A stretch of DNA of 64,000 nucleotides from Sphingopyxis sp. (GCA_017745175.1 JAGHZY010000016.1:17105-81104), one strand, 5' to 3'. Positions 3,291 to 49,262 are shown, counted from the first letter of the stretch. Numbers and translations are program-made. The notes: generated by a model not told the origin, from the sequence alone.

Positions 3291-4325
3291 CTATTCGCGC
3301 GCCTTTGCCGCCGTGCGGACGTCCTGCGACCGTTCGAGCGGCATGACGAGGATATCGTCACCGTCGACGATCACCGCGATATCCGACAGGCCGACGACCG
3401 ATACGCGCTTGCCGCCGGTGCGGATGAGGTTGCCGCGGCAGTCGTGGAGAAAGGCGTCGCCCGACACGGCATTGCCCGCTCCGTCCTTTATGCCGACGCC
3501 GTGGACCGCCTGCCAGCTGCCGAGATCGGACCAGCCCATCGAAGCCGGGACGACCGCAACGCGATCGTCCTTTTCCATCACGGCGTAGTCGATCGAAACG
3601 GACGGTGCCTTTTCGAACTCGATCGCGTCGGCATGGCACGCATCGCCGTCGCGCATGCCCGCGGCGACGGCTTTGTCGGCGGCCTCGAAGATCGCGCGGC
3701 AATGGGTGAGCATCGCGTCGCGCATCCGCGCCGCGCGGAACAGGAAGATGCCGGCATTCCAGCTGTACCCGCCTGCGGCGAGCATGGCCTCGGCATCGGC
3801 GAGCGGCGGTTTTTCGATGAAGCGATCGACGCGAAAACCCTCATCGCCGAGTGCGGCGCCGCCGGCGATATAGCCGAAGCCGGTTTCGGGACAGTCGGGC
3901 GTGATGCCGAAGGTGACGAGCCAGTCCTGCTGCGCGAGGCGTGCGCCCTTCGCGATCGCCGCGTGAAAGGCCGGGAGGTCGGCGATCACATGGTCGCTCG
4001 GCATCACGAGCAGCAGCGTATCGGCGTCGGCCTGCGCGACGGCTAGCGCGATTGCCGCGGCGGTGTTGCGCGGCATCGGTTCGACGAGCAGCGAGGCTTC
4101 CTTCGCGCCGATCTGTTCGCGGACCACCGCGACATGGGCATCGCCGCACAGGATGACGGGCGGGAGGAAATCGGGTCCTGCGGGCGTGCGCTGGACGGTC
4201 TGTTCGAACAGGCTCTTCTCGCCGGTCAGCGGCAGGAACTGCTTGGCGCGGTCGCCGCGCGATTCGGGCCACAGGCGCGTTCCGGCGCCGCCGCAGAGGA
4301 TTACGGGCTGGATCATCAAGGTCAT
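3291..4325 (-). CDS. mannose-1-phosphate guanylyltransferase-like sugar nucleotidyltransferase (no PMI/cupin domain)
   Basis: 344-aa ORF with the N-terminal motif QPVILCGGAGTRLWPESR typical of ManC/XanB-type nucleotidyltransferases. Confidence 0.8.
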   Translation of the reverse strand: MTLMIQPVILCGGAGTRLWPESRGDRAKQFLPLTGEKSLFEQTVQRTPAGPDFLPPVILCGDAHVAVVREQIGAKEASLLVEPMPRNTAAAIALAVAQADADTLLLVMPSDHVIADLPAFHAAIAKGARLAQQDWLVTFGITPDCPETGFGYIAGGAALGDEGFRVDRFIEKPPLADAEAMLAAGGYSWNAGIFLFRAARMRDAMLTHCRAIFEAADKAVAAGMRDGDACHADAIEFEKAPSVSIDYAVMEKDDRVAVVPASMGWSDLGSWQAVHGVGIKDGAGNAVSGDAFLHDCRGNLIRTGGKRVSVVGLSDIAVIVDGDDILVMPLERSQDVRTAAKARE

Positions 4326-4428
4326 GGCCCTCGTCTACCGCCTCCAATGCCGCCGGTCATCCTCTTCGTGAAACGGGAAGTGTAAAATTAACCGACAGTT
4401 GACGCCTCGGCTGTAGTATCGCGCCGGC

Positions 4429-5817
4429 ATGTTCCGGCTATTCAAACATTATGTCCCGCACGCCGTCGTCTGGCTGGCGCTGATCGAATTTCTCGCGCTG
4501 CTCGGCTCGGCCGAGGGGGCGTGGCATCTCTATGCGCATCAGGCGGGATTCGACGCGGGGCCGCTGGCCAGCCGCTGGCTTCCGCTCCTCACCTTCGGCA
4601 TCGCCAATTCGCTCGCGATGATGGCGACGGGCATGTACGGGAACGAGGGGCTGCGTTCGATGCGCTTTGCGACGGCGCGGTTGCTCGCGGCGATTTCGCT
4701 GGGCGTGATCTTTCTCTCGGTGCTCGGTTTCCTGTTGCCGACCGTGACGCTGTGGCGCGCGAACAGCCTCTATGCGATGATCCTTGCGATCACGGTACTG
4801 TTCGTGATCCGGCTCGCGCTCACCCAGTCGGCGGGAACCGAGGCATTCCGGCGCCGTATCCTCGTCCTCGGTGCGGGGCCGCGCGCGGCGCGGCTCGCCG
4901 CGCTGGCCGATGCGCCGGGAAGCGGGCTCGAGATGGTCGGCTTCGTCGCGATGGGCGCGGCCGAGACGACGGTGGCGGGCGCCGTGCCGCGCGAGGCGAT
5001 CGCCAATCTGTCGGACCATGTGGTGGCGCTGCGCGCAGGCGAAGTCGTGCTGGCGCTCGAGGAGCGGCGCAATGCGCTGCCGCTGAACGACCTGCTCCGC
5101 GTCAAGACGACGGGCGTGTATGTCAACGACATCGCGAGCTTCATCGAGCGCGAAACGGGGCGCGTCGACCTTGCGACCACCAACCCCAGCGGGCTGATCT
5201 TTTCGGACGGCTTTTCGGCCGGCCAGCGGATTTCCAAGGTCGGCAAACGGATATTCGACATCGTCGCGAGCCTGATCGTCCTCGTCGTCGGCCTGCCGCT
5301 GATCATCGTCGCGGGGATCGCGGTGGTGCTCGACAGCCGCGGGCCGGTCTTTTACCGCCAGCCGCGCGTCGGCCTGTTCGGCGAGCCCTATGACATCTTC
5401 AAGATCCGGTCGATGCGCACCGACGCCGAGGCGGCGGGCAAGGCCGTGTGGGCGGCCGAGAACGACCCGCGCGTCACCCGCGTCGGGCGCATTATCCGCA
5501 AGCTTCGCATCGACGAGCTGCCGCAGACCTGGTGCGTGCTGAAGGGCGACATGAGCTTCGTCGGGCCGCGCCCCGAACGGCCGAGCTTCGTCGAGGAACT
5601 CGAGCAGAAGCTGCCCTATTATGCCGAACGCCACATGGTGAAGCCGGGGCTGACCGGCTGGGCGCAGATCAACTATCCCTATGGCGCATCGGTCGAGGAT
5701 GCGCGCGTGAAGCTCGAATACGACCTTTATTACGCCAAGAATTATTCGCCTTTCCTCGACCTGTTGATCCTGCTCCAGACGGTGCGTGTCGTGCTGTGGC
5801 CGGAGGGTGCGAGGTAG
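4429..5817 (+). CDS. polyprenyl-phosphate sugar transferase, PEP-CTERM/XrtA-system-associated type (TIGR03013-like)
   Basis: 462-aa ORF. The N-terminus is hydrophobic and multi-TM (MFRLFKHYVPHAVVWLALIEFLALL). The C-terminal bacterial sugar transferase domain shows RVGLFGEPYDIFKIRSM, DELPQTWCVLKGDMSFVGPRPERP and KPGLTGWAQI. It sits directly upstream of prsK/prsR/prsT. Confidence 0.75.
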   Translation: MFRLFKHYVPHAVVWLALIEFLALLGSAEGAWHLYAHQAGFDAGPLASRWLPLLTFGIANSLAMMATGMYGNEGLRSMRFATARLLAAISLGVIFLSVLGFLLPTVTLWRANSLYAMILAITVLFVIRLALTQSAGTEAFRRRILVLGAGPRAARLAALADAPGSGLEMVGFVAMGAAETTVAGAVPREAIANLSDHVVALRAGEVVLALEERRNALPLNDLLRVKTTGVYVNDIASFIERETGRVDLATTNPSGLIFSDGFSAGQRISKVGKRIFDIVASLIVLVVGLPLIIVAGIAVVLDSRGPVFYRQPRVGLFGEPYDIFKIRSMRTDAEAAGKAVWAAENDPRVTRVGRIIRKLRIDELPQTWCVLKGDMSFVGPRPERPSFVEELEQKLPYYAERHMVKPGLTGWAQINYPYGASVEDARVKLEYDLYYAKNYSPFLDLLILLQTVRVVLWPEGAR

Positions 5818-5819
5818 CG

Positions 5820-7928
5820 GTGAGCGCGCTCGCCGGCCTGTCCCAGATCCTGTCCGGCCTCGCGATGGCGGGCTTTGCCGGGGTCACGCTGTGGCTGCTG
5901 ACGCGGCCGCGCGCGCGGACGGCAGCGCTGATGCCCGCACCGCGATGGCTCGCTGCCGCCGCCGCCGCCACGGGTTTCTGGGCCGGGGCGCTCTTCCTCT
6001 TCGGCCCCGGCTCGTCGCAATCGCTGGTCGTCCAGACCGTACGCGACCTTGCGATGCTGTTCTGGCTGGCGCAGACATTCTGGTCCGCGGGCGCACCGAT
6101 GTCGCGGCCGTTGCGGCTGATTCTCCGGATGCTGGCGACGATCTGCATGGTGACCCTCCTGCTGGGGGCGGCGGCGCATCTGCGTGCGGGGGACGCGGCC
6201 GAGCCGTGGATGGCGCCGGCGCTGGCCTTTGCGGCGGTGGTCGTCGCGATCGGCGGCCTGCTGCTTGTCGATGGCGGCGCGCGCCAGGCGAGCGCCGGAC
6301 AGCGCAAGCCGGTGATGGCGGTCGCGGCGGGTTTCGCGATGCTGTGGGCCTATGAGGTCAATATCCAGCTGATCGGCGCGCTGACCGGCGAGACCGCATC
6401 GATGCTGCGCGATCTCCTGCCCGGGGTCGCCTTGCTGACCCTGCCGACCTATGTCGTCGCGGCGCTCGATGTCGGGCGCGACCGGATGCGCCTGTCGCGC
6501 ACCGCGGCGACGCGCACGCTGATCCTGCTCGGCGGCGCGGCCTATCTGATCGTCATTGCCCTGACCGGCGCCGTCGCGCGGCTGGTGGGCGGCGACTATG
6601 CCGAGCTGGCGCAGGCGATATCGCTCGCCGCCGCGCTGGGCGCGGGCGGGCTCTTGCTCGCCTCCTCGCGATACCGCGCCTGGCTGACGGTGATCATCTC
6701 CAAGCATTTCTTCGAGCATCGCTACGATTATCGCGCCGAGTGGATGCGGTTCACCGCGACGCTGGGGCAGGGCGACGGCGACGACGACCGCAACCTCTAT
6801 CGCCGCGTCGCGAAGGCGCTGGCCGAGCTCACGGGCAGCCCGGGCGCGCTGCTGATGCTGCCGGGCGCATCGGGCAGCTTCCGTGTCGCCGAGCAATGGC
6901 ATTGGCCGGGCGCGCCGGGCGAGGAGGCGACGCTGTCGCTGCGGTCGGCCTTCATGCTGCAGGAGACGCAATATATCGTCGATCTCGACACCGAACGCCG
7001 CGGGCAGGGCAGCGAGGATCTGGCGATCCCCGACTGGCTGATCGCCGACACGCGGGCGTGGGTGGTCGTGCCCGTGCTGCATTTCCAGCGGATGATCGCG
7101 ATCGTCGTGCTGCAACGCCCCGCGGCGTCGCGCGCGCTCGACTGGGAAGATCTCGACGTGCTGCGCATCGCGGGGCAGCAGGCGGCAAGCTATCTCGCCG
7201 AATCGCAGAGCCAGCGGGCCTTGTCGGAGGCGCGGCGCTTCGACGAGTTCAACCGCCGCTTCGCCTTCATCATGCACGACATCAAGAATCTGGCGAGCCA
7301 GATCGGGCTGCTCGCGCGCAATGCCGAGCGCCACGCCGACAAGCCCGATTTCCGCGCCGACATGATCGGGACGCTGAAGGTTTCGGCGGGGCGGCTCAGC
7401 GACCTCCTCGTCCGGCTGGCGCCGCGCGAGCGCGGCCCCGCTGCGGAAGCCGGGCGGCTATTGGTCGAACCGGTGCTGAACGAGATCGCCGCCGCGATGC
7501 GCCCGCGCCGCGCGCTGTTCATCGGTTGCCAGGCCGGACTGGCGGCGTGGGCCAACGCGGGCGCGGTCCGGCAGATCGTCCAGCATCTGGTAACCAATGC
7601 GATCGATGCGTCGGCGCCCGAAACGCCGGTGCAGGTGGTCGCGGTCGCCGAGCAGGGGCGCGTGCGCATCGACGTGATCGACGAGGGCAGCGGCATGACG
7701 CGTGAATTCATCCGCGACGAGCTGTTCAAGCCCTTTGTGTCGACGAAGGAATCGGGGTTCGGGCTGGGGGCGTTCGAGGCGCTGCGGATCGCGCAGGCGA
7801 TGGGCGGCGCGATCGAGGTGGCGAGCGAGCCGGGCAAGGGAAGCAACTTTACCCTCTGGCTGCCGCTTGCCGATGTACGCAGCGAAAACGGGGGCGATCC
7901 CCGCGCGATGAAGGTGGGACAGCGATGA
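5820..7928 (+). CDS. prsK: XrtA/PEP-CTERM system histidine kinase PrsK
   Basis: In-frame GTG at 5820, just after the stop of the upstream gene; the track ORF start at 5448 would overlap that gene by 370 nt. The N-terminal half (~300 aa) is polytopic membrane. H-box FAFIMHDIKNL and ATPase boxes HLVTNAIDA / DEGSGM / GFGLG are present. Its 4-nt overlap with prsR suggests coupling. Confidence 0.75.
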   Translation: MSALAGLSQILSGLAMAGFAGVTLWLLTRPRARTAALMPAPRWLAAAAAATGFWAGALFLFGPGSSQSLVVQTVRDLAMLFWLAQTFWSAGAPMSRPLRLILRMLATICMVTLLLGAAAHLRAGDAAEPWMAPALAFAAVVVAIGGLLLVDGGARQASAGQRKPVMAVAAGFAMLWAYEVNIQLIGALTGETASMLRDLLPGVALLTLPTYVVAALDVGRDRMRLSRTAATRTLILLGGAAYLIVIALTGAVARLVGGDYAELAQAISLAAALGAGGLLLASSRYRAWLTVIISKHFFEHRYDYRAEWMRFTATLGQGDGDDDRNLYRRVAKALAELTGSPGALLMLPGASGSFRVAEQWHWPGAPGEEATLSLRSAFMLQETQYIVDLDTERRGQGSEDLAIPDWLIADTRAWVVVPVLHFQRMIAIVVLQRPAASRALDWEDLDVLRIAGQQAASYLAESQSQRALSEARRFDEFNRRFAFIMHDIKNLASQIGLLARNAERHADKPDFRADMIGTLKVSAGRLSDLLVRLAPRERGPAAEAGRLLVEPVLNEIAAAMRPRRALFIGCQAGLAAWANAGAVRQIVQHLVTNAIDASAPETPVQVVAVAEQGRVRIDVIDEGSGMTREFIRDELFKPFVSTKESGFGLGAFEALRIAQAMGGAIEVASEPGKGSNFTLWLPLADVRSENGGDPRAMKVGQR

Positions 7929-9301
7929 CCGGGGACGGGACCAATTTGCGCAAACTGCTGGTGGTCGAGGACGATCCGGGGCTGCAGGCGCAGCTCAAAT
8001 GGGCCTATGAGGACTATCAGGTGCTGGTGGCGGGCGACCATGACGCGGCGATCGAGCAGCTGCGCGCCGAGGAGCCCGACGTCGTCACGCTCGACCTCGG
8101 GCTGCCGCCCGATCGCGACGGGACGCGCGAAGGGTTCCGGACGCTGCAGGCGATTCTCGAGGCGAAGCCCGACACCAAGGTGATCGTCGTGTCGGGGCAT
8201 GGCGAGCGGGCGAGCGCGCTGTCGGCGATCGCGAACGGGGCGTGGGACTTCTATCAGAAGCCGATCGATATCGACGAACTGGGACTGATCGTCCGCCGTG
8301 CCTTCCACGTTCGCGAGCTCGAGGTCGAGAATGCCCGGCTGGCCCGCCAGGGCGCAGGTGACAATCGCGTGCTCGGCGGGATGATCACCGGCGCGCCCGA
8401 GATGCTGAAGGTCGCGCGCACGATCGAGCGCGTTGCCAACCTCGACGTATCGGTGATGCTGCTCGGGGCGAGCGGCACGGGCAAGGAACTGCTCGCGCGC
8501 GGGCTGCACGAGGCGAGCGCGCGGCGCGATGGCGCGTTCGTCGCGATCAATTGCGCCGCGATCCCCGAAAATCTGCTCGAAAGCGAATTGTTCGGGCACG
8601 AGAAGGGCGCCTTCACGGGCGCGGTGAAGACGACCGAGGGCAAGATCGAACTGGCGCACGGCGGCACGCTCTTCCTCGACGAGGTCGGCGACATCCCGCT
8701 GCCGCTGCAGGTCAAATTGCTGCGCTTTTTGCAGGAGCGCACGATCGAGCGCATCGGCGGGCGCAAGGCGATTGCGGTCGATACCAGGATCGTGTGCGCG
8801 ACACACCGCGACCTCGACGCGATGATCGCCGGACAGAGTTTTCGCGACGATCTTTATTACCGGCTCGCCGAAATGGTCGTGAAGATTCCGTCGCTCGCCG
8901 AACGGCCCGGCGATGCGGTGCTGCTGGCGCGGCACTTCCTTCACCAATATGCGCCCGAGATGAACCCCGGCGTGCGCGGTTTCGCGCCCGATGCGCTGCA
9001 GGCGATCGACGAGGGACGCTGGCCGGGCAATGTCCGCGAACTCGAGAATCGCATCAAGCGCGCGGTGATCATGGCCGACGGCAAGCTGGTGATGCGCGAG
9101 GATCTGGACCTCGCGACGAGCGAGGCGGACGGCGAGGAAGCATGGCTCAACCTGCGGAGCGCGCGCGAGGCGGCCGACCGCGTCGCGATCCGCCGCGCGA
9201 TGATGCAGAGCGAAGGCAATATCTCGGCCGCCGCCAAGCTGCTCGGGATCAGCCGCCCGACGCTCTATGACCTGCTCAAGCAATATCGGATGCAGGCCTG
9301 A
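7925..9301 (+). CDS. prsR: PEP-CTERM-box sigma-54-dependent response regulator PrsR
   Basis: 458-aa ORF. Receiver domain ([16 protein letters not shown] ... [11 protein letters not shown]). Canonical AAA+ motifs: [30 protein letters not shown]-terminal Fis-type HTH ([19 protein letters not shown]). Confidence 0.85.
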
Positions 9302-11149
9302 GTGGGGCTTCGCCGCGTCTCGACAGGCGCGCTGCTGCTCGCGGCGTTGCTGCTGACGGCATGCGGCGGCGGCGGGCCGCGCGCGCCGCGCGAGGCGTTG
9401 GAGGAGCGCCGCGCGGCGTTGCAGGCGGCGATCGCCGGCGATCCTGAAAACATCGTTCCGCGCGTCGAGCTGGCGCGCGTCGCGATCCGGCTCGGCGACG
9501 GAGTCGGGGCCGAAGCGGCGGTGCAGGGCGCGCTTGAAGCCGGCGCCAACGACGCGGCGCTGCGCCCCTTGCTCGCGCGCGCCTATGCGATGCAGGGCGA
9601 AGACGCCCGCGCGCTCCAGACACTCGATGGTGGGCCGATCATGCCCGAGATGACCGGCGAGGCGGCGTGGGTCGCGGGCGACGTCCATCTGGCGGGCGGC
9701 GATCTCGTCGCGGCGCGTGACGCTTATGATCGTGCGGTGCGCGAACTGCCTCGCAATTCGGACCTGTGGGTCGATGTCGCGCGCTTCCGCGATGCCAATG
9801 CCGACACGCTCGGCGCGCGCGACGCGGTCGACTATGCGATCGAACTCGACAAGGCGAACAGCGGGGCGCTGGCGTTCAAGGCGAATCTGGTGCGGACCGG
9901 CGAGGGGCTCAGGGCTTCGCTGGGCTGGTATGAAAAGGCGCTCGAAGCCGATCCCGACAACGCCGATGCGCTCATCGAACAGGCCGCGACACTCGGCGAT
10001 CTCGGCCGTTATCGCGATATGCTGACGGCGTTGCGCCGCGCCGCGCCGCTGGTTTCGCGCGACCCGCGGCTTTTCTATCTTCAGGCGGTGCTGGCGGCGC
10101 GCGCGGGCGATTATCCGCTCGCGCGCAGCCTGCTCCAGCGAACACGCGGCGAACTCGATGCGCAGCCGTCGTTCATGCTGCTGAGCGCCGTCGTCGAGCT
10201 CGAGCTGGGCGGCGAGGCCATCGCGGCGAGCTGGGCCGACCGGCTGCTGACCGAACAGCCGGACAATTTCACGGCGCGGCGCATCCTCGCCGCGGCGGAA
10301 TGGTCCGACGGCGACGCCGGCGCGGCGCTCGAAGCGCTGCGACCGGTCGTCGGGCGTCCCGACGCCGACAGCTGGTCGCTGCTGCTCGCGGCGCGCGCCG
10401 CGGGCGAACTTGGGAAGAGGGCCGAGTCGGCGGATTATCTGGGGCGTGCAGCGACGCTGACGCGCGGCGAGGCCGAGCCGTTTGCGGTCGACAATGACTA
10501 TGGCCTGCTGACGATGGCGGCCGATGCCGAACCGCTGAACCCGGCCAGCGTGATTCCCGCCATTTCGGCTGACATGGCGAGCGGCAACAGCGCGCGCGCG
10601 ATCGAGCGCGCGACGCGGCTGCGCGATGCGAACCGCGGCGTCGCCGATGCGCATATCCTGCTCGGCGACGCGGCGCTCGCAGGCGGGCGGACCGATCTGG
10701 CGGTCGAGGCCTATCGCGCCGCGCGCGATCTCGACGCGGGCGAGCGGACGACGCTGCGGCTCGCCAATGCCCTGTATCGCGCGGGCGATGTGGCGGGTTC
10801 GGGCGCGGCGATCCTCGCGCTGCAGCGCAGCCAGCCGTCGAGCGTCGCTGCCGACCGGCTTTCAGGGCATCTTGCCATGGATATCGGGCACCGCGATCAG
10901 GCGATCGTGCATTTCGAGCGCGTCCGCCGCCGGATCGGCGATCGCGATGTCGTGATCCTGCGCGAACTGGCGCGGGCGTGGGCGGCGAAGGGCGACGATG
11001 CGCGCGCGTTGCCGCTGATCGACCGCGCCTATCGGCTCCAGCCGCTCAATGCGGAGATCATGGAGATCTACGCCCGCCTGCTCGATCGGCGCGGCAAGAC
11101 GCAGGCCGCCGCGGACCTGCGCGACAAGGCGGCGCAGATCGGGCGCTAG
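9302..11149 (+). CDS. prsT: TPR-repeat lipoprotein, PrsT-like (PEP-CTERM system)
   Basis: GTG start directly after the prsR stop. Lipobox LLLTAC|GG. The rest is Ala/Leu/Arg/Asp-rich TPR-like repeats. The gene order prsK-prsR-prsT supports the call. Confidence 0.65.
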   Translation: MGLRRVSTGALLLAALLLTACGGGGPRAPREALEERRAALQAAIAGDPENIVPRVELARVAIRLGDGVGAEAAVQGALEAGANDAALRPLLARAYAMQGEDARALQTLDGGPIMPEMTGEAAWVAGDVHLAGGDLVAARDAYDRAVRELPRNSDLWVDVARFRDANADTLGARDAVDYAIELDKANSGALAFKANLVRTGEGLRASLGWYEKALEADPDNADALIEQAATLGDLGRYRDMLTALRRAAPLVSRDPRLFYLQAVLAARAGDYPLARSLLQRTRGELDAQPSFMLLSAVVELELGGEAIAASWADRLLTEQPDNFTARRILAAAEWSDGDAGAALEALRPVVGRPDADSWSLLLAARAAGELGKRAESADYLGRAATLTRGEAEPFAVDNDYGLLTMAADAEPLNPASVIPAISADMASGNSARAIERATRLRDANRGVADAHILLGDAALAGGRTDLAVEAYRAARDLDAGERTTLRLANALYRAGDVAGSGAAILALQRSQPSSVAADRLSGHLAMDIGHRDQAIVHFERVRRRIGDRDVVILRELARAWAAKGDDARALPLIDRAYRLQPLNAEIMEIYARLLDRRGKTQAAADLRDKAAQIGR

Positions 11150-40539: not shown

Positions 40540-42569
40540 TCCGCCTGCTGACGGGGACCGCGCTGCTGGCGATGCCGGCGGCGGCGGCGGCGCAGGACGA
40601 GTTGGTCAGGGTCGAGGTCTGTTGTTCGCGTGATCCGGCGGAAATCATCGTGACCGGATCGGGAGCGCTCACGCCGCCGGCGGGTGACGCGATCGGGCAG
40701 CGTGTCCTGATCGGCGACCTCGAACCCGGCCTCGGCGCACGCATCGAAAACCGGCTGCGCGACGAAGCGGGAATCGTCCAGTTCCGTCGTTCGGACGGCC
40801 GTTCGGCGCATCCTACCAGCCAGGGCGTCACGCTGCGCGGGCTCGGCGGCAATGCTTCTGCGCGAGCGCTCGTGACGCTCGACGGGGTGCCGCAGGCCGA
40901 CCCGTTCGGCGGCTGGGTCGCGTGGAGCGCCTATGATGCGATCCGCCTCGGCGGTATCGCGGTCGCACGCGGTGGCGGCAGCGGTGCCGACGGCCCGGGG
41001 GCGCTTGCCGGAACGATCGGCCTTTATTCGGAGATGACCGATGGCGCCGAAGCGAGCCTGGCCTACGGCAGCCGCGACAGTCGGGATGCCTCGGCATCGG
41101 TTGGCGGGCGGATCGGAAAGGGCGAGGTCGCGCTCGATGGACGCTACAGCCGCGGCGACGGTTTCATGCCCGTGGCTAGCGGGCAGCGTGGGTCGGTCGA
41201 TCGCGCTGCGGCCTATGAACAGGGCGGGCTCGGCCTTCGCCTGCGCTTCGACGTGGGCGATGCCAGTCGTATCGAGGCGAGCCTGCGTGGCTTCTCCGAT
41301 CATCGCGACCGCGGGACCGATTTCACGCAGAGCAAGTTCGACGGGATCGATGCGAGCCTGCGATTCGTGCATGATCTGCGCTATGGGACGCAATGGCTCG
41401 CGCTGGCCTATGTCCAGCTTCGCGATTTCGAAAGCGGCTTTGCCAGCGTCGCAGCGGGGCGGAACAGCGTCGCGCCGGCGCTGTTCCAGCGCGTGCCCGC
41501 GACGGGACTTGGCGCGCGGTTCGAACTGCGCCCGGCCATCGACGGCGCCAATCCCTTGCGCGTTGGCGCCGACTGGCGCCGCACCACCGGCCGCACCGAG
41601 GAGGATTTCTTCTTTTCGGGCACCATTCCGGGACGGCACCGTATTGCAGGCGGCAGCAGCGATACGGTCGGTGCCTTTGCCGAGTGGACCTCGGGTGACG
41701 ACGATGATGGCTTCCTCTGGACGCTAAGCGGTCGCCTCGATCGTTGGTCGCTCGGCGAAGGTTACCGGCTCGAACGCAATATCGGCGGGCCGGTCATCAC
41801 CAATCTGCGCTTCGCATCCCGGCAGGGTTGGGAGGGCAGTGGGCGTGCCGGGGTGCGCTGGAGTTCGGGCGATTTTGCATTGCGGGCCGCCGGCTATCGG
41901 GGCTGGCGTCTGCCGACGCTCAACGAACTCTATCGCCCGTTCCGCGTCGGGGCCGAGGTGACGACCGCGAACGAGGCGCTGAAACCCGAACGTCTGTGGG
42001 GCGGCGAGGCCGGCGCCGACTGGAACAGTGGCGGTACGAAGCTGTCGGCGACGATCTTCGCAAATCACCTGACCAACGCGATCGCCAATGTCACGCTCGC
42101 GCCGAACCTCAACCAGCGGCAGAATCTCGATGCGATCGACAGCAAGGGCGTCGAGGTCAGCGCCGAGCAGCGGATCGGCGTGGCGACGCTCCGCGCGACC
42201 TGGGCCTATACCGATGCCAGGGTCGATGCCGCGGGCCGCGCGGCTGCCCTCGACGGTCGCCGTCCGGCGCAGATCGCCAAACATGGCGGCAGCATCTCGC
42301 TGCGCAGCAATGCGAACGGACCGTTCGGCGGCTTTGCGACGCTGCGCTATGTCGGCAAGCAGAACGAGGATGATCTCGGGTTGCTCCGGCTCGACGACGC
42401 CCTGACGCTCGACGCGGGGCTGTCGTGGCGTTTTTCGGATGCGATCAGCATCGAGGCGCGCGGCGAAAACCTGTTCGACGAACTCGTCCCCGCCGCGATC
42501 TCCTCCTCGGGGATCGTCGAGCGCGCGACGCCGCGAACTTTGTGGGTCGGCGCGCGCCTTTCTTTCTGA
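40536..42569 (+). CDS. TonB-dependent receptor
   Basis: GTG overlaps the maiA stop. Signal peptide ending AAAAQ. Plug-like region (VTLRGLGGNASARALVTLDGVPQADPFGG). Beta-barrel ends in the terminal ...WVGARLSF. Confidence 0.8.
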   Translation: MIRLLTGTALLAMPAAAAAQDELVRVEVCCSRDPAEIIVTGSGALTPPAGDAIGQRVLIGDLEPGLGARIENRLRDEAGIVQFRRSDGRSAHPTSQGVTLRGLGGNASARALVTLDGVPQADPFGGWVAWSAYDAIRLGGIAVARGGGSGADGPGALAGTIGLYSEMTDGAEASLAYGSRDSRDASASVGGRIGKGEVALDGRYSRGDGFMPVASGQRGSVDRAAAYEQGGLGLRLRFDVGDASRIEASLRGFSDHRDRGTDFTQSKFDGIDASLRFVHDLRYGTQWLALAYVQLRDFESGFASVAAGRNSVAPALFQRVPATGLGARFELRPAIDGANPLRVGADWRRTTGRTEEDFFFSGTIPGRHRIAGGSSDTVGAFAEWTSGDDDDGFLWTLSGRLDRWSLGEGYRLERNIGGPVITNLRFASRQGWEGSGRAGVRWSSGDFALRAAGYRGWRLPTLNELYRPFRVGAEVTTANEALKPERLWGGEAGADWNSGGTKLSATIFANHLTNAIANVTLAPNLNQRQNLDAIDSKGVEVSAEQRIGVATLRATWAYTDARVDAAGRAAALDGRRPAQIAKHGGSISLRSNANGPFGGFATLRYVGKQNEDDLGLLRLDDALTLDAGLSWRFSDAISIEARGENLFDELVPAAISSSGIVERATPRTLWVGARLSF

Positions 42570-42613
42570 TTTTCGCGCGGTCCGCCCTTCACAGGCCCGA
42601 AACAGGCGATAGG

Positions 42614-43096
42614 ATGTCCCGCCGGGACAAAGATGTGGGGTTTTCAGGCATGGCCGCGAAGAAGCTGAATCTCGATAATTTTCTGCCCTATCGCCTGTCC
42701 ATCGCGTCCAACGCCCTGTCGAGCCGGATCGCCGCCGAATATGAGAATCGTTTCGGGCTGAAGATTCCCGAATGGCGGCTGATGGCGATCCTCGGCGAGG
42801 GGCAGCCGAAGACGCAGCGCGAACTCGTCGCGGCGACGCGGATGGACAAGGTGACGGTCAACCGCGCGGCCAAAGCGCTGGCGGACCGCCAGCTGATCGC
42901 GCGTCAGGCGCATGAAGCCGACGGGCGCTCTCACCATCTCGAACTCACCGAAACGGGGCGCTCGCTCTACGACGCGATCGTCCCCGCGGCGCTCGCGAGC
43001 GAGGCGCGGCTCGAATCGAACATCAGCGCGGGCGAGCGCGCGACGCTGATGGCCATCCTCGCGAAGCTGACCGCCGCCGCCGAAGTGTATGACTGA
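42614..43096 (+). CDS. MarR family transcriptional regulator
   Basis: ATG at 42614; 42650 is an alternative. LPYRLSIASNALSSRIAAEYENRFGLKIPEWRLMAILGEG ... RELVAATRMDKVTVNRAAKALADRQLI. Confidence 0.8.
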   Translation: MSRRDKDVGFSGMAAKKLNLDNFLPYRLSIASNALSSRIAAEYENRFGLKIPEWRLMAILGEGQPKTQRELVAATRMDKVTVNRAAKALADRQLIARQAHEADGRSHHLELTETGRSLYDAIVPAALASEARLESNISAGERATLMAILAKLTAAAEVYD

Positions 43097-43370
43097 TCGC
43101 GCCTATCGCGCGGCGCCCGCGGGCGCGCTGCGCGTCGAGCCGCTCGGCGCGCTGACCGCGATTTTCGACCGCCGGTCGATGCAGACGCATCTCGTCGTAT
43201 CGCCAATGCCCGAAATACTGGAGGCGATGGGCGAGGACGCGTGCAATGTCGCCGCGCTCGCCGCGCGCCTTGCCGCATCCTTCGATCTCGACAGCGAAGG
43301 CGACGTCCGGCCAATCCTCGCCGAACGGCTCGCCGAGCTGACGGCGATGGGGCTGGTGGAGCGGGCGTGA
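43089..43370 (+). CDS. PqqD-family (RiPP-recognition-element-like) small protein, 'HPr-rel-A system' type
   Basis: 93 aa. The ATG overlaps the MarR 3' end by 8 nt. The size and pattern (LTAIFDRRSMQTHLVVSPMPEILEAM ... LAERLAELTAMGLVE) fit PqqD-like peptide chaperones. Confidence 0.6.
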   Translation: MTDRAYRAAPAGALRVEPLGALTAIFDRRSMQTHLVVSPMPEILEAMGEDACNVAALAARLAASFDLDSEGDVRPILAERLAELTAMGLVERA

Positions 43371-44245
43371 GGCACCGCACGCGCATTGCCGTCGGTCCGG
43401 TGCAATTCCGTATCGGCAGCGACTGGGCCGAACCGGTCGCGGCGCTTGAAAGCCTCTATGCCGGCTATCCGCGCGACGAGATGCGCCCCGCCGACGCGAC
43501 GGTGCGGCTGTTTGCGGCGCGGCCGTGGCGGCGCTGGCTGCGGCCGTCGGTGCATATCGGCGGCGATTTCGTGGTTCCGGACGCGCTGCCGCTGCCGCTG
43601 TCGATGGGGCTGCTCGCCGCCGAGATGGGGATGAATTTGCAGGTCGCGCTCGGCTGGCGGCGGCACATGCTGCTGCACGCGAGCGCGGTGGCGAAGGACG
43701 GGCGGGCGCTGATCATGTCGGGTGAGTCGGGGTCGGGCAAATCGACGCTCGCGGCGCTGCTCGGCGAGAAGGAGGGCGGGGGCGACTGGCGGCTGATGGG
43801 CGACGAGTTCACGCTGATCGACCCGGCGGGCGGCGATGCCTTCGCCTTTCCGCGCGCGGTGAGCCTGAAGAACGAGGCGATCGCCGAAGTCGCGGCGCGC
43901 GTCGATGCGGCGCGGCTGGGGCCGCTCCTCGCGGGCACGCCCAAGGGCGATATCCGCCACCTGATTCCGCGTCCCGAAGCGATCGCCGCGATGCACGAAC
44001 CCGCACGCCCGGCGCTGCTGCTCTTCCCGCGTTTCGGGGGCGAGGCGGGCATCGAGCCGATGGGCGAGGGCGAAGCCTTCGTCCGGCTGACCGAGGCGTC
44101 CACCAACTATGTCGCGCTCGGCGAGGCGGGCTTCGCCGCGATGACGCGGCTGGTGCGCGAGACGCCCGCTTTCGGCATCACCTATCCCGACAGCGCCGCG
44201 GGCGTCGCGCTGGTCGAACGGCTCTGGGCGGAGGCGGCGCGGTGA
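43367..44245 (+). CDS. HPr-kinase-related P-loop kinase ('HprK-related kinase A'-like)
   Basis: GTG at 43367 overlaps the PqqD stop (GTGA). LLHASAVAKDGRALIMSGESGSGKSTLAALL matches the HprK-type P-loop context. 292 aa. Confidence 0.6.
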   Translation: MRHRTRIAVGPVQFRIGSDWAEPVAALESLYAGYPRDEMRPADATVRLFAARPWRRWLRPSVHIGGDFVVPDALPLPLSMGLLAAEMGMNLQVALGWRRHMLLHASAVAKDGRALIMSGESGSGKSTLAALLGEKEGGGDWRLMGDEFTLIDPAGGDAFAFPRAVSLKNEAIAEVAARVDAARLGPLLAGTPKGDIRHLIPRPEAIAAMHEPARPALLLFPRFGGEAGIEPMGEGEAFVRLTEASTNYVALGEAGFAAMTRLVRETPAFGITYPDSAAGVALVERLWAEAAR

Positions 44246-45255
44246 GCGCGGTGCGGACCTTTGTCGACCTGCTCGCCGGACGCGGCGATCCGGCTGTACT
44301 GGCGCCGCCCGACTGGGACGGCGTGATCGGCGTCGCGCGCAGCGAGGCGATGCTCGCGACGCTGGCGCACCGGCTGGCGGATGCCGGCCTTCCGCCCACC
44401 GTCGCCGCGCTGTTCGCCGACCAGCGCGCGGCCGCGGCGGTCGCGCAGCGCCAGGCACTGTGGGAGGCCGAGATGGCGCGGCGCGCGCTCGCGCCCGCGG
44501 GGATCGAGTTCGTGCTGCTGAAAGGCGCCGCCTATGCTGCCGCGGGCATGGCGTGCGCGGCGGGGCGGCAGATCGGCGACCTCGATATCCTCGTCCTCGC
44601 GTCCGACATCCGCCGCGCCGAGAACGCGCTGCTCAAGGCGGGCTGGGAGTGGGTCAAATCCGATCCCTATGACGATCATTATTACCGCGCGCACATGCAC
44701 GAGCTGCCGCCGCTCATTCACAAGGTGCGCGACCGGATGATCGACGTGCATCACACGATCCTGCCGCGCACGCACCGGATCACGCCCGATGCGCTCGCGC
44801 TGGTCAGCGATGCGGTGACGAGCGCCGATGGCCATGCCGTGCTGTGCGCTCCCGACATGGCGGTCCATTGCGCCGCGCATATGCTCGCCGACGGCGACCT
44901 GCAGGGCGGGCTGCGCAATCTCTGGGATTTCCACACGATGACGCGCGACTTTGCCGCCGCCGACCCGGGTTTCTGGGGGAAGCTCGACGGGCGCGCCGAG
45001 ATGCACGGCTTGCAGGCGGCGGTGCATCGCGCCGCGCGGCTGTCGCGCGACCTTTATGGCGCGGCGCTGCCGGGCGGGTGGGACCGGCAGGATCCGGCCG
45101 ACGTCTGGTTCCGCCGCCGTCTGTTCGCGCGCGACGATTGGGGACGGGTGACGCAGCCGTCGCTCGAACAGGCCTTCTACATCCGTTCGCACTGGCTGCG
45201 CATGCCGCCCGCGATGCTGGCGCGGCACCTCTGGACGAAGTGGCGCAAGCGCTAG
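44242..45255 (+). CDS. nucleotidyltransferase family protein (PF14907/NTP_transf_5-like)
   Basis: GTG overlaps the kinase stop (GTGA). FVLLKGAAYA ... RQIGDLDILV ... HHTILPR pattern. 337 aa. Confidence 0.6.
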   Translation: MSAVRTFVDLLAGRGDPAVLAPPDWDGVIGVARSEAMLATLAHRLADAGLPPTVAALFADQRAAAAVAQRQALWEAEMARRALAPAGIEFVLLKGAAYAAAGMACAAGRQIGDLDILVLASDIRRAENALLKAGWEWVKSDPYDDHYYRAHMHELPPLIHKVRDRMIDVHHTILPRTHRITPDALALVSDAVTSADGHAVLCAPDMAVHCAAHMLADGDLQGGLRNLWDFHTMTRDFAAADPGFWGKLDGRAEMHGLQAAVHRAARLSRDLYGAALPGGWDRQDPADVWFRRRLFARDDWGRVTQPSLEQAFYIRSHWLRMPPAMLARHLWTKWRKR

Positions 45256-45914
45256 AGCATTGCGAGAAGCGGGACCAGCTCGTCGAAATGATCGATCACA
45301 TGGTCGGCGCCAAGCTCCGGCGCGGGCCGGTCGAGAAAACCGAAGCTGACCGCGACGCTCGGCACGCCCGCATTCTTCGCCGCCATTACGTCATAGATGC
45401 TGTCGCCGACGAACGCTGCACGCCCGCCGCCGCATCGCTCGATCATCGCATGGATCGGCTCGGGTGAGGGCTTGCGAACCCCCAGCGTGTCGCCGCCGAT
45501 GATCGTCGCCATGCGATCGGCTAGATCGAATTCGGCAAGCAGCAGGCGCGCGAGATGCTCGGCCTTGTTGGTGACCACCGCGGTGCGTACGCCCAGCGCG
45601 TCGAGCCGGTCGAGCGCAGCGATGACGCCGGGAAAGAGCCGGCTTTTGCCCGAGATATCGGCTTCGTAAAAGCGCAGCAGTTCGGGATAGAGCCGCTCGA
45701 CCGCGCCGTCGGGGGCGCCGCCGGACGCACGCAGCCCTTCTTCGAGCATATGCTTCGCGCCGCGCCCGATCATCGGCCGTACCGCATCTTCGTTCAGCGG
45801 CGCGCGGTCCATCAGCGCCAGCGTGCGATTGACCGCAGCGGCAAGGTCGCCAAGCGTATCGAGGAGCGTGCCGTCGAGGTCGAAGCCGACGGTCGCAAAA
45901 GGAAATCCGTTCAT
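45252..45914 (-). CDS. HAD-superfamily phosphoglycolate phosphatase-like hydrolase
   Basis: ATG at 45914 (MNGFPFATVGFDLDGTLLDT), VVTNK, GDSIYDVMAAKNAG. 220 aa. The longer track ORF adds an Arg/Pro-rich, non-protein-like N-terminus. Confidence 0.8.
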   Translation of the reverse strand: MNGFPFATVGFDLDGTLLDTLGDLAAAVNRTLALMDRAPLNEDAVRPMIGRGAKHMLEEGLRASGGAPDGAVERLYPELLRFYEADISGKSRLFPGVIAALDRLDALGVRTAVVTNKAEHLARLLLAEFDLADRMATIIGGDTLGVRKPSPEPIHAMIERCGGGRAAFVGDSIYDVMAAKNAGVPSVAVSFGFLDRPAPELGADHVIDHFDELVPLLAML

Positions 45915-48672: not shown

Positions 48673-48897
48673 ATGCGCTTCCTCGCGGACATTCCGGACG
48701 ATGATATCCAGTGGCTCGACGCGCTTGCGGCCGAGCTTGGCGTGTCGCGCGCAGAACTCGTGCGCCGCGCGGTAGCGGCCTATCGCGCGGATGCGTCGGG
48801 CGACGCGATCGATAACGCCTTCGGCATTTTCCGCGCCCGCGCCGACATCGGCGACGGCCTCAAATATCAGCGGCGCCTGCGGGGCAAGCGCGAATGA
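48673..48897 (+). CDS. ribbon-helix-helix (CopG/VapB-like) antitoxin
   Basis: 74 aa: MRFLADIPDDDIQWLDALAAELGVSRAELVRRAVAAY. 4-nt overlap with the PIN gene. Confidence 0.7.
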   Translation: MRFLADIPDDDIQWLDALAAELGVSRAELVRRAVAAYRADASGDAIDNAFGIFRARADIGDGLKYQRRLRGKRE

Positions 48898-49262
48898 TCG
48901 ATGCGCAGTTCGACAGCGACATCCTGATCGACGCGCTGAACGGCGTCGAGGCGGCGCGCAACGAGATCCGCCGCGCGGGGCGCAAGAGCGTGAGCCGCGT
49001 CAGCTGGACCGAAGTCATGTCCGCCGCCGATCCCGCATCGGTGAAGGCGGTCGAGGCGTTCCTCGGCTGCTTTCAGGTCGAGGAGATCGGCGATGCGGTC
49101 GCGCGCCGCGCCGCGGCGCTGCGGGCGGAGCGCAAGGGCTTGACCTTGGCCGACGCTTTCGTACTGGCGACCGCGCAGATCAGCGGACGCATTCTCGTCA
49201 CACGCAATATCAAGGTGTTTCCGGCATCGATGCCGGGTATTCGCGTTCCCTACACGCTCTAA
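48894..49262 (+). CDS. vapC: PIN-domain toxin (VapC family)
   Basis: 122 aa. Acidic residues fall in PIN positions (FDSDILIDAL ..., LADAFVLATA, ILVTRNIKVF). Confidence 0.7.
   Translation: MIDAQFDSDILIDALNGVEAARNEIRRAGRKSVSRVSWTEVMSAADPASVKAVEAFLGCFQVEEIGDAVARRAAALRAERKGLTLADAFVLATAQISGRILVTRNIKVFPASMPGIRVPYTL

Follow-up and report, generated by a model that had tools for sequence, protein, structure and literature searches.

We analysed a four-gene operon in a 64,000-nt stretch of DNA from Sphingopyxis sp. (GCA_017745175.1 JAGHZY010000016.1:17105-81104), which we call the window and in which positions are counted from its first letter. The operon encodes a MarR-family regulator, a PqqD-like peptide chaperone, an HprK-related kinase and a nucleotidyltransferase-fold enzyme of the PF14907 family. 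Profile matches and gene order show that the last three genes, hereafter the cassette, are the ortholog in Sphingopyxis of the HPr-rel-A system that NCBIfam defines; here they stand in a MarR-headed operon. In most other members of the system the slot just upstream of the chaperone gene is held by a gene for a protein with a twin-arginine translocation (Tat)-type leader, belonging to one of two families that we call c1 and c4. The account that we favour, without giving it quite an even chance, is that a c1/c4 protein destined for Tat export is bound at its leader by the chaperone and modified by the kinase and the transferase, and that in Sphingopyxis the gene of the target is unlinked. The family as such is already known, being curated and named and having its orthologs labelled in RefSeq; what is lineage-specific here is that MarR is in and the client is out. 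New in this analysis are a candidate client family that is absent from the libraries, the leader shared within it, Rosetta-stone fusions of the cassette proteins, and a physical linkage to PEP-CTERM genes.

Identity and conservation of the cassette

Related loci were taken from 80 distinct Sphingomonadales genomes, from a set of 80 metagenome loci seeded with a distant subgroup, and from 7 further contexts, which gives about 165 loci overall. An earlier reading of the window made from its sequence alone (the sequence-only reading) had assigned the trio to the HPr-rel-A system and had named the profile models that would recognise it. All three proteins scored above the curated cut-offs of these models (Table 1): the chaperone with TIGR04353 ('HPr-rel-A system PqqD family peptide chaperone', cut-off 35 bits), the kinase, over residues 7-286, with TIGR04352 ('HprK-related kinase A', cut-off 200 bits) and the transferase with PF14907 (cut-off 31.2 bits). 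The gene order is also the same, and the assignment was right. The model of HprK-related kinase B, TIGR04355, which had been listed along with the others, gave 23.8 bits and thus fell far under its cut-off of 200; this match and that of TIGR04249 (16.4 bits, cut-off 125) were weak and lay in the P-loop region. The precomputed Pfam label of the kinase is PF27840 (ScmC). Its nearest database proteins are 88-92% identical, and the named ones are called 'HprK-related kinase A' in RefSeq and come mostly from named Sphingopyxis species. An exact look-up of the window's transferase, and one of a representative, found no entry on record. More widely, when a library of 50%-identity cluster representatives was searched with the kinase, 153 proteins matched at E<=1e-30, and the number rose to 726 at E<=1e-10.

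The order chaperone-kinase-transferase, with gene ends that mostly overlap, was recovered by profile searches of the Sphingomonadales and metagenome sets in essentially every locus long enough. The chaperone is naturally fused to the kinase in several proteins (P0155/P0272/P0273, P0234, P0227/P0274) and the kinase to the transferase in others (P0179, P0195, P0224, P0256, P0271). Together with the invariant order, the fusions suggest that the three proteins act together.

The residues that are invariant in the family are in place. An alignment of 40 sequences has 13 invariant kinase residues, and all of them are kept here, including H104, the P-loop residues G124-K125-S126-T127 and the pair D146-E147. 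Residues K94, G95, R109, D113, D115 and D168 of the transferase are invariant across 24 diverse members and are likewise kept, and the further invariant residues H170, H171, H209, H213, R225 and D229 are present. The GESGSGKST P-loop of the kinase and the GDLDILV motif of the transferase, both pointed out in the sequence-only reading, were found as described. With a G-x-D-x-D carboxylate motif and a third acidic residue, the predicted transferase carries the signature of Pol-beta-type nucleotidyltransferases.

For the chaperone, the PqqD-like identity proposed earlier stands with respect to TIGR04353 but not with respect to the Pfam model PqqD (PF05402), which the window's own protein did not match at E<=0.01, the threshold of the Pfam scan of window proteins. 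Half of the diverse family members (14/28) did match PF05402, the best with E 1.1e-11. A profile of the chaperone family aligned to the lasso-peptide B1 protein TfuB1 (6jx3_B) over nearly its full length with E=8.7e-5, which is the best sequence match of the family among solved structures, and to TbiB1 with E 0.38; phmmer searches of the three cassette proteins against the sequences of the PDB returned generic P-loop noise only. By profile comparison, the chaperone family appears homologous to the leader-binding lasso B1 proteins, that is, to the recognition elements (RREs) of RiPPs, peptides which ribosomes make and which are then altered post-translationally.

This homology raises the question whether the cassette is an orphan set of lasso tailoring genes, with the matching cyclase, protease and precursor encoded at another place or missing because a contig broke there. 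The TfuB1 match would fit such an origin, as would the part that HPr-kinase homologues and a nucleotidyltransferase have in the tailoring of lasso peptides (PMC9266682). Lasso core genes are nevertheless not conserved beside the cassette: no Asn-synthetase-like cyclase, transglutaminase-like protease or dedicated/ABC exporter recurs there in the about 165 related loci, and among the annotated open reading frames (ORFs) of the window there is no lasso cyclase, B2 protease or ABC exporter, nor was a short precursor-type ORF noticed. The absence of these genes that the sequence-only reading had remarked on therefore holds in both samples. Moreover, the four genes are native in their codon composition, their third-position G+C content (GC3) being 0.82-0.89. 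In Sphingomonadales the cassette belongs to the core genome and was found at a conserved chromosomal position in 80/80 of the loci retrieved; the genes that flank it are the divergent phoR-pstSCAB-phoU-phoB on one side and HAD, glmU and glmS on the other. We consider an orphan lasso set very improbable.

As to the pho flank itself, the block phoR-pstS-pstC-pstA-(pstB)-phoU-phoB divergently adjoins the cassette in most Sphingomonadales loci that are not of the MarR type (for example L012:457-9124 and L167:255-7770). The Sphingopyxis-type loci have a different flank in its place, and the breakpoint falls exactly at the expected position of c4.

Proteins with a Tat-like leader upstream of the chaperone gene

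In most other Sphingomonadales, outside Sphingopyxis, the slot upstream of the chaperone gene encodes c4, a highly conserved protein of ~135 aa. Its leader has the form ...(S/T)RRxxLMLGAAxASAVVSIRPALAQT and is followed by a mature part of ~90 aa with two invariant Cys residues and the invariant C-terminal sequence SGFTC(F/Y)ASLQMPR. Homologues of c4 number about 3,300-3,900, and wherever one of the 120 listed bears a name, it is 'hypothetical protein'. In loci from outside the sphingomonads the equivalent is c1, a protein of ~200-225 aa whose gene lies directly upstream on the same strand in 42/52 eligible loci. In nearly all c1 proteins (42/46) an (S/T)RRxFLK-like motif leads into a hydrophobic stretch that closes with an Ala-x-Ala-like end, and then come a conserved Cys and a Ser-rich motif, C-x-S-x-S-G-x-x-S-G-N-x-S; the C-terminal domain is conserved as well (...LGxHxVAALLN...GYYEPTAGVxW). 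In one locus (L086) the c1 gene stands downstream of the transferase gene rather than before the chaperone gene, still within the cassette.

Neither c1 nor c4 belongs to a Pfam or NCBIfam family. When the two were compared by hhalign, they aligned over the leader only (37 columns, probability 88%, E 3e-6) and their mature parts remained unaligned. A common leader on varied cargo, in a position like that of a RiPP precursor gene, is what chiefly leads us to regard c1/c4 as the probable client. The AlphaFold2 model of c4 is weak, with a predicted local distance difference test (pLDDT) score of 62: the leader is disordered, a small core reaches 70-86, and the invariant C-terminal tail is of low confidence. 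A Foldseek search with this model returned no structural relatives at E<=0.001. The frequency of sigma-54 promoter-like motifs upstream of c1 genes was not above background.

Loci linked to PEP-CTERM genes repeatedly have a trypsin/HtrA-like serine protease and a lytic transglycosylase beside the cassette (clusters in 7 and 3 loci; for example L131:6167-7877 and L130:12041-13752), and the protease could process exported c1.

Linkage to the XrtA/PEP-CTERM system

The sequence-only reading had mentioned, with reserve, a tie between the system and exosortase/PEP-CTERM species, and the physical linkage of the genes supports it. PEP-CTERM genes lie beside the cassette in at least 21 loci from outside the sphingomonads, namely 11/23 of the loci with >=8 kb of flank and ten shorter ones. 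The counts are restricted to markers that ad hoc hidden Markov models (HMMs) reliably recognised; loci with PrsR only were excluded, because the ad hoc PrsR model also matches unrelated response regulators (KdpE, PhoB). The neighbours in linked loci include PrsT (575 bits), PrsK (819 bits), PrsR (757 bits), the TIGR03027 exporter, the TIGR04063 and TIGR03013 glycosyltransferases, the TIGR03015 ATPase, the TIGR03016 outer-membrane protein, the TIGR03018 tyrosine kinase and the TIGR03007 chain-length determinant. In one locus (L157) the genes prsK-prsR-prsT-c1-chaperone-kinase-transferase follow each other on one strand, and in another (L130) the gene of the exosortase-dependent surface protein XDP1 is directly upstream of c1.

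The window too has an XrtA/PEP-CTERM module (4429..11149; Table 1), which the sequence-only reading had placed 32 kb upstream of the cassette as a possible connection. The genes are real, although the PrsT-like protein scores below its cut-off; as a sign of linkage the module does not serve, since the 32-kb gap between it and the cassette, including the intervening 17-40 kb, is filled with housekeeping genes and the presence of prsKRT in the window is not linkage in itself. The PrsT-like ORF has ~615 aa compared with ~925-945 aa for full-length PrsT elsewhere; it could be a truncated or a divergent version, or its ends may be wrongly drawn. The region is also spanned by a long ORF on the antisense strand (7190-10654).

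The linkage bears on the choice of client. The enzymes could serve another unlinked protein, either PEP-CTERM sorting-signal proteins or, in Sphingopyxis, a new client, with c1/c4 as an accessory and not as the substrate. The physical tie of the cassette to PEP-CTERM/XrtA genes, including XDP1 next to c1, would agree with this, as would the selection on the Sphingopyxis enzymes without an adjacent c4 (see below). Across the loci, however, no PEP-CTERM protein gene is conserved adjoining the cassette, in contrast to c1/c4, and no candidate was found within the window. In addition, PEP-CTERM signals are C-terminal whereas lasso B1-type RRE domains read N-terminal leaders. We judge such a client to be quite unlikely. 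The earlier suggestion of a sorting-signal protein is accordingly disfavoured, and the target, which had been left open, now has a concrete candidate family in c1/c4.

The best-ranked literature on PEP-CTERM and exosortase made no mention of PqqD or HPr kinase. The stimulus of the PrsK sensor kinase was called 'obscure' by Haft et al. 2006 (PMC1569441).

The MarR-headed operon of Sphingopyxis

Direct reading of 42000-45700, together with the ORF table, confirmed the translationally coupled operon of the sequence-only reading, with four genes on the same strand and junction overlaps of 8, 4 and 4 nt. The MarR gene stops with TGA at 43094-43096 and the chaperone gene starts with ATG at 43089, so that they overlap by the 8 nt ATGACTGA. 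The kinase gene starts with GTG at 43367, within the GTGA (43367-43370) that it shares with the end of the chaperone gene, and the transferase gene starts with GTG at 44242, within the GTGA at 44242-44245, and stops with TAG at 45253-45255.

One end of the operon had to be moved. The MarR start had been set at ATG 42614, and the alignment of 9 Sphingopyxis-type loci corrected it to ATG 42650. The 36 nt between the two codons are a variable insertion found in only 3/9 loci, and the N-terminus that follows ATG 42650, MAAKKLN, is conserved in 7/9 loci, an eighth having MAAKTLN. The upstream ATG is also overlapped by a promoter-like motif (42588-42615; Table 1), which was the sole match in 42300-45600 compared with 0.2 expected from shuffles and whose core, CTTCACAG...CGATA(A/G)G, is kept in 7/9 of the loci. 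We place the start at 42650 because the stretch 42614-42650 is variable and the ATG at 42614 is overlapped by the conserved motif. Apart from the window (window:42616-42649), only L001 and L163 have the insertion, whose length varies among them; it is the source of the spurious in-frame ATG 42614. No convincing MarR box was seen upstream of the MarR gene, the inverted repeats there being short, G+C-rich and overlapping the end of the receptor gene.

The regulator has no equivalog-level NCBIfam match (best 45.9 bits, cut-off 125). Its gene is found before the chaperone gene in no other than Sphingopyxis-type loci (the window, L001-4, L006-8, L020, L146, L148, L163). It is an addition of the Sphingopyxis lineage outside the conserved system, and it fills the slot held elsewhere by the gene of the Tat-leader protein. 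The sequence-only reading was correct in placing MarR at the head of this operon. In two c4-bearing loci (L070, L159) the MarR ortholog is found a few kb downstream on the opposite strand, which suggests that a local rearrangement may have carried MarR into the slot of the client.

In order to measure constraint, ratios of non-synonymous to synonymous substitution rates (dN/dS) were calculated pairwise for the window against five Sphingopyxis-type loci, with pairs of c4-bearing lineages as the comparison. The values for MarR were 0.05-0.33. For the chaperone they were 0.17-0.42 (0.17-0.34 in c4-bearing pairs), for the kinase 0.12-0.26 (0.11-0.22) and for the transferase 0.13-0.31 (0.14-0.37). 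By this measure all four genes are under purifying selection, and the constraint on the trio is as strong as in c4-bearing lineages. The lack of relaxed constraint suggests that the chaperone still has something to bind.

The same values bear on whether the cassette of Sphingopyxis is a functionless remnant, its enzymes decaying once the target gene had been lost. It is true that the ancestral gene upstream is missing and that no replacement was found in the window. The dN/dS values of the trio (0.12-0.42 overall), however, are not above those of c4-bearing lineages, every family-invariant residue of the kinase and the transferase is intact, and the tight overlaps of starts and stops are conserved across Sphingopyxis species. 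Decay is hardly credible in view of these results.

Proposed mechanism and the weight of the evidence

From this pattern we infer that c1/c4 is the substrate, what the chemistry of its modification would be, that it is exported by Tat, and that it has a role in the PEP-CTERM system. The chaperone would bind a small exported protein of the c1/c4 families by the twin-arginine-type leader at its N-terminus and present the protein to the kinase, which would phosphorylate a hydroxyl side chain. The PF14907 enzyme may then elaborate the phosphate, by analogy with the PsmK/PsmN pair, in which a phospho-Ser receives a hexose. The modified protein would be exported through the Tat pathway and act in the XrtA/PEP-CTERM exopolysaccharide programme. 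In the Sphingopyxis lineage the target gene would have been displaced from its ancestral slot just upstream of the chaperone gene, with the MarR gene in its place; the target would then be encoded outside the 64-kb window and the enzymes would be under MarR control.

A fuller proposal, tentative and on balance doubtful, takes the HPr-rel-A cassette in general as a cytoplasmic maturation machine for Tat-exported proteins. A repurposed RiPP-type recognition element would read the twin-arginine leader, and the PEPCK/HprK-fold kinase and the PF14907 transferase would install a phosphate-based adduct before export. The product would function in the XrtA/PEP-CTERM exopolysaccharide/floc programme, possibly as an input to PrsK, and in Sphingopyxis the client would be unlinked and the enzymes under a MarR switch.

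Several results weigh against c1/c4 as the client. The Tat motif of c1/c4 reaches only sub-threshold scores with curated models of Tat signals, and neither family has a conserved C-terminal Ser, the residue that lasso kinases target. About half of the long non-sphingomonad loci have no PEP-CTERM gene nearby. In the window, HMMs of c1, c4 and the shared leader searched in six frames gave no match better than E 0.05, and those obtained were short antisense fragments. The best 120 homologues of c4 from the database search include no species-named Sphingopyxis protein; the sole 'Sphingopyxis sp.' entry among them (P0344) is 96% identical to a Parasphingorhabdus sp. protein and has the ancestral gene layout. 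Finally, the solved folds nearest to the kinase are those of small-molecule phosphoenolpyruvate carboxykinases (PEPCKs) and not of protein kinases. The AlphaFold2 model of the kinase has a pLDDT of 95.9, and in the Foldseek search with this model the best match was ATP-dependent PEPCK (E 2e-8, query-based TM-score, TMq, about 0.5); chains of HPr kinase/phosphorylase (HprK/P) ranked below it (E 2e-4 to 1e-3, target-based TM-score, TMt, 0.41-0.46). The kinase matched no Pfam Hpr_kinase model at E<=0.01. Because the whole two-domain model superposes better on ATP-PEPCK than on HprK/P, 'HprK-related' would be true only at the level of the fold that PEPCK and HprK/P share.

The fold is also a reason to consider a small-molecule or glycan pathway, in which the kinase would phosphorylate a sugar or acid precursor of an XrtA-linked exopolysaccharide and the PF14907 enzyme would nucleotidylate or transfer it, the PqqD-like protein being a scaffold only and the Tat-leader protein an unrelated periplasmic partner. 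Polysaccharide genes surround the cassette in many loci, and in Sphingomonadales it is adjoined by the HAD phosphatase, glmU and glmS, which are neighbours concerned with UDP-N-acetylglucosamine. Against this, HprK/P has the same PEPCK fold and yet has a protein as its phosphorylation substrate. The chaperone is a homologue of RRE proteins that bind peptide leaders, fusions of it with the kinase occur repeatedly, and the conserved leader that c1 and c4 share would be left unexplained. The only characterised pair of a kinase and a nucleotidyltransferase homologue, PsmK/PsmN, acts on a peptide (PMC9266682). We think that a small-molecule pathway, although the strongest of the alternatives, is unlikely.

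If c1/c4 is indeed the client, a RiPP-style recognition element would guide the modification of a folded exported protein and not of a small peptide. Tat substrates would thereby gain a kind of modification before export that is new, and the PEP-CTERM/exosortase system would gain a component. The comparative result makes the function directly testable and, for the annotation of Sphingopyxis genomes, it means that the target is not to be expected beside the enzymes.

Other features of the window

The coordinates of the features discussed are collected in Table 1.

Table 1 Coordinates of the operon, of the PEP-CTERM genes of the window and of example c1 and c4 genes. Positions without a locus name are those of the window; scores are profile bit scores.
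Feature	Position	Strand	Evidence
Sigma-70-like promoter candidate of the four-gene operon, TTCACA-16 nt-TAGGAT	42588..42615	+	Motif scan
MarR-family regulator, 148 aa	42650..43096	+	PF12802 48.1 bits, PF01047 39.4 bits
PqqD-like peptide chaperone, 93 aa	43089..43370	+	TIGR04353 49.7 bits
HprK-related kinase A, P-loop, predicted PEPCK/HprK fold, 292 aa	43367..44245	+	TIGR04352 221.1 bits
PF14907 (NTP_transf_5) nucleotidyltransferase-fold enzyme, 337 aa	44242..45255	+	PF14907 174.2 bits
TIGR03013 glycosyltransferase	4429-5817 (scanned as 4417-5817)	+	485.7 bits
PrsK	5448-7928	+	436.9 bits (cut-off 300)
PrsR	within 7706-9301	+	664 bits
PrsT-like tetratricopeptide repeat (TPR) protein	9302-11149	+	196.7 bits, below the cut-off of 312 (TIGR02917)
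c4, examples	L012:9145-9597, L167:8001-8417		Equivalent position in most non-Sphingopyxis Sphingomonadales loci
c1, examples	L130:9076-9711, L157:8910-9617, L099:8923-9594		Also in about 40 other metagenome loci

Downstream of the operon, a convergent gene on the minus strand for a HAD/phosphoglycolate-phosphatase-like protein ends at 45252, its stop overlapping that of the transferase gene within the palindrome CTAG (45252-45255). There is zero intergenic space at this junction and no terminator-like hairpin between the two genes. Directly upstream of the operon (window:37588-42569) are genes for a NosD/right-handed beta-helix protein, an SO2930-family diheme cytochrome c (377 bits), a glutathione S-transferase and a TonB-dependent receptor; this block stands where other Sphingomonadales carry the pho regulon flank.

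Farther away, window:27292-28488 encodes a DNA methyltransferase (PF01555, N6_N4_Mtase) with a C-terminal RAMA domain, which we take to resemble the CcrM-type cell-cycle methylase of alphaproteobacteria. A close relative of the window has a small pair of ribbon-helix-helix (RHH) antitoxin and PIN toxin genes between two GNAT acetyltransferase genes and glmS (L001:15307-15896); the counterpart of this region is window:48600-49262, with a PIN-sized ORF at 48816-49262.

Comparison with known systems

The closest known system is HPr-rel-A, with which the cassette shares both signature models, the gene order and the coupling of the genes. The difference is that MarR stands here where most members carry the gene of a Tat-leader protein; the latter is a feature proposed in this analysis and is not part of the curated definition of the family, to which no function is attached. 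No paper was found that names the HPr-rel-A system, its TIGR models or PF27840.

The tailoring genes of lasso peptides (PadeK/ThcoK/PsmK, PsmN and B1) comprise the same three protein types, namely an RRE-related protein, a P-loop kinase of the HPr-kinase-like sort and a homologue of nucleotidyltransferases; the likeness is one of protein types and motifs. Lasso-peptide kinases phosphorylate precursor peptides and depend on a His-Lys-Asp-Asp motif shown to be essential by mutagenesis, and PsmN, the nucleotidyltransferase homologue of the PsmK/PsmN pair, adds hexose on the phospho-Ser of pseudomycoidin (PMC9266682). The His/Lys/Asp/Glu set of the kinase here (H104, K125, D146, E147) resembles that essential motif (PMC9266682). 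The cassette differs in having no cyclase, B2 protease, exporter or short precursor, and its candidate client would be folded and 135-225 aa long, with a twin-arginine leader but lacking a conserved Ser at the C-terminus.

With HprK/P the kinase shares the P-loop and, on the predicted model, the fold of the C-terminal catalytic domain (Foldseek E 2e-4 to 1e-3, TMt about 0.43). It differs in the missing Pfam Hpr_kinase match and in its better superposition on ATP-PEPCK, and no gene for HPr or the phosphotransferase system (PTS) was noticed among the annotated neighbours. ScmC of the SynChlorMet cassette (TIGR04249, PF27840) and HprK-related kinase B (TIGR04355) are related to the kinase through weak matches in the P-loop region only, and they have different partner genes.

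A functional parallel may be drawn to the proofreading chaperones of the Tat pathway (the TorD, DmsD and NapD class), in which, as in the mechanism proposed here, a small cytoplasmic protein is proposed to hold a twin-arginine leader until the cargo has matured in the cytoplasm. Their folds are unrelated and we claim no homology; the maturation in question would be the covalent modification of a side chain rather than the insertion of a cofactor.

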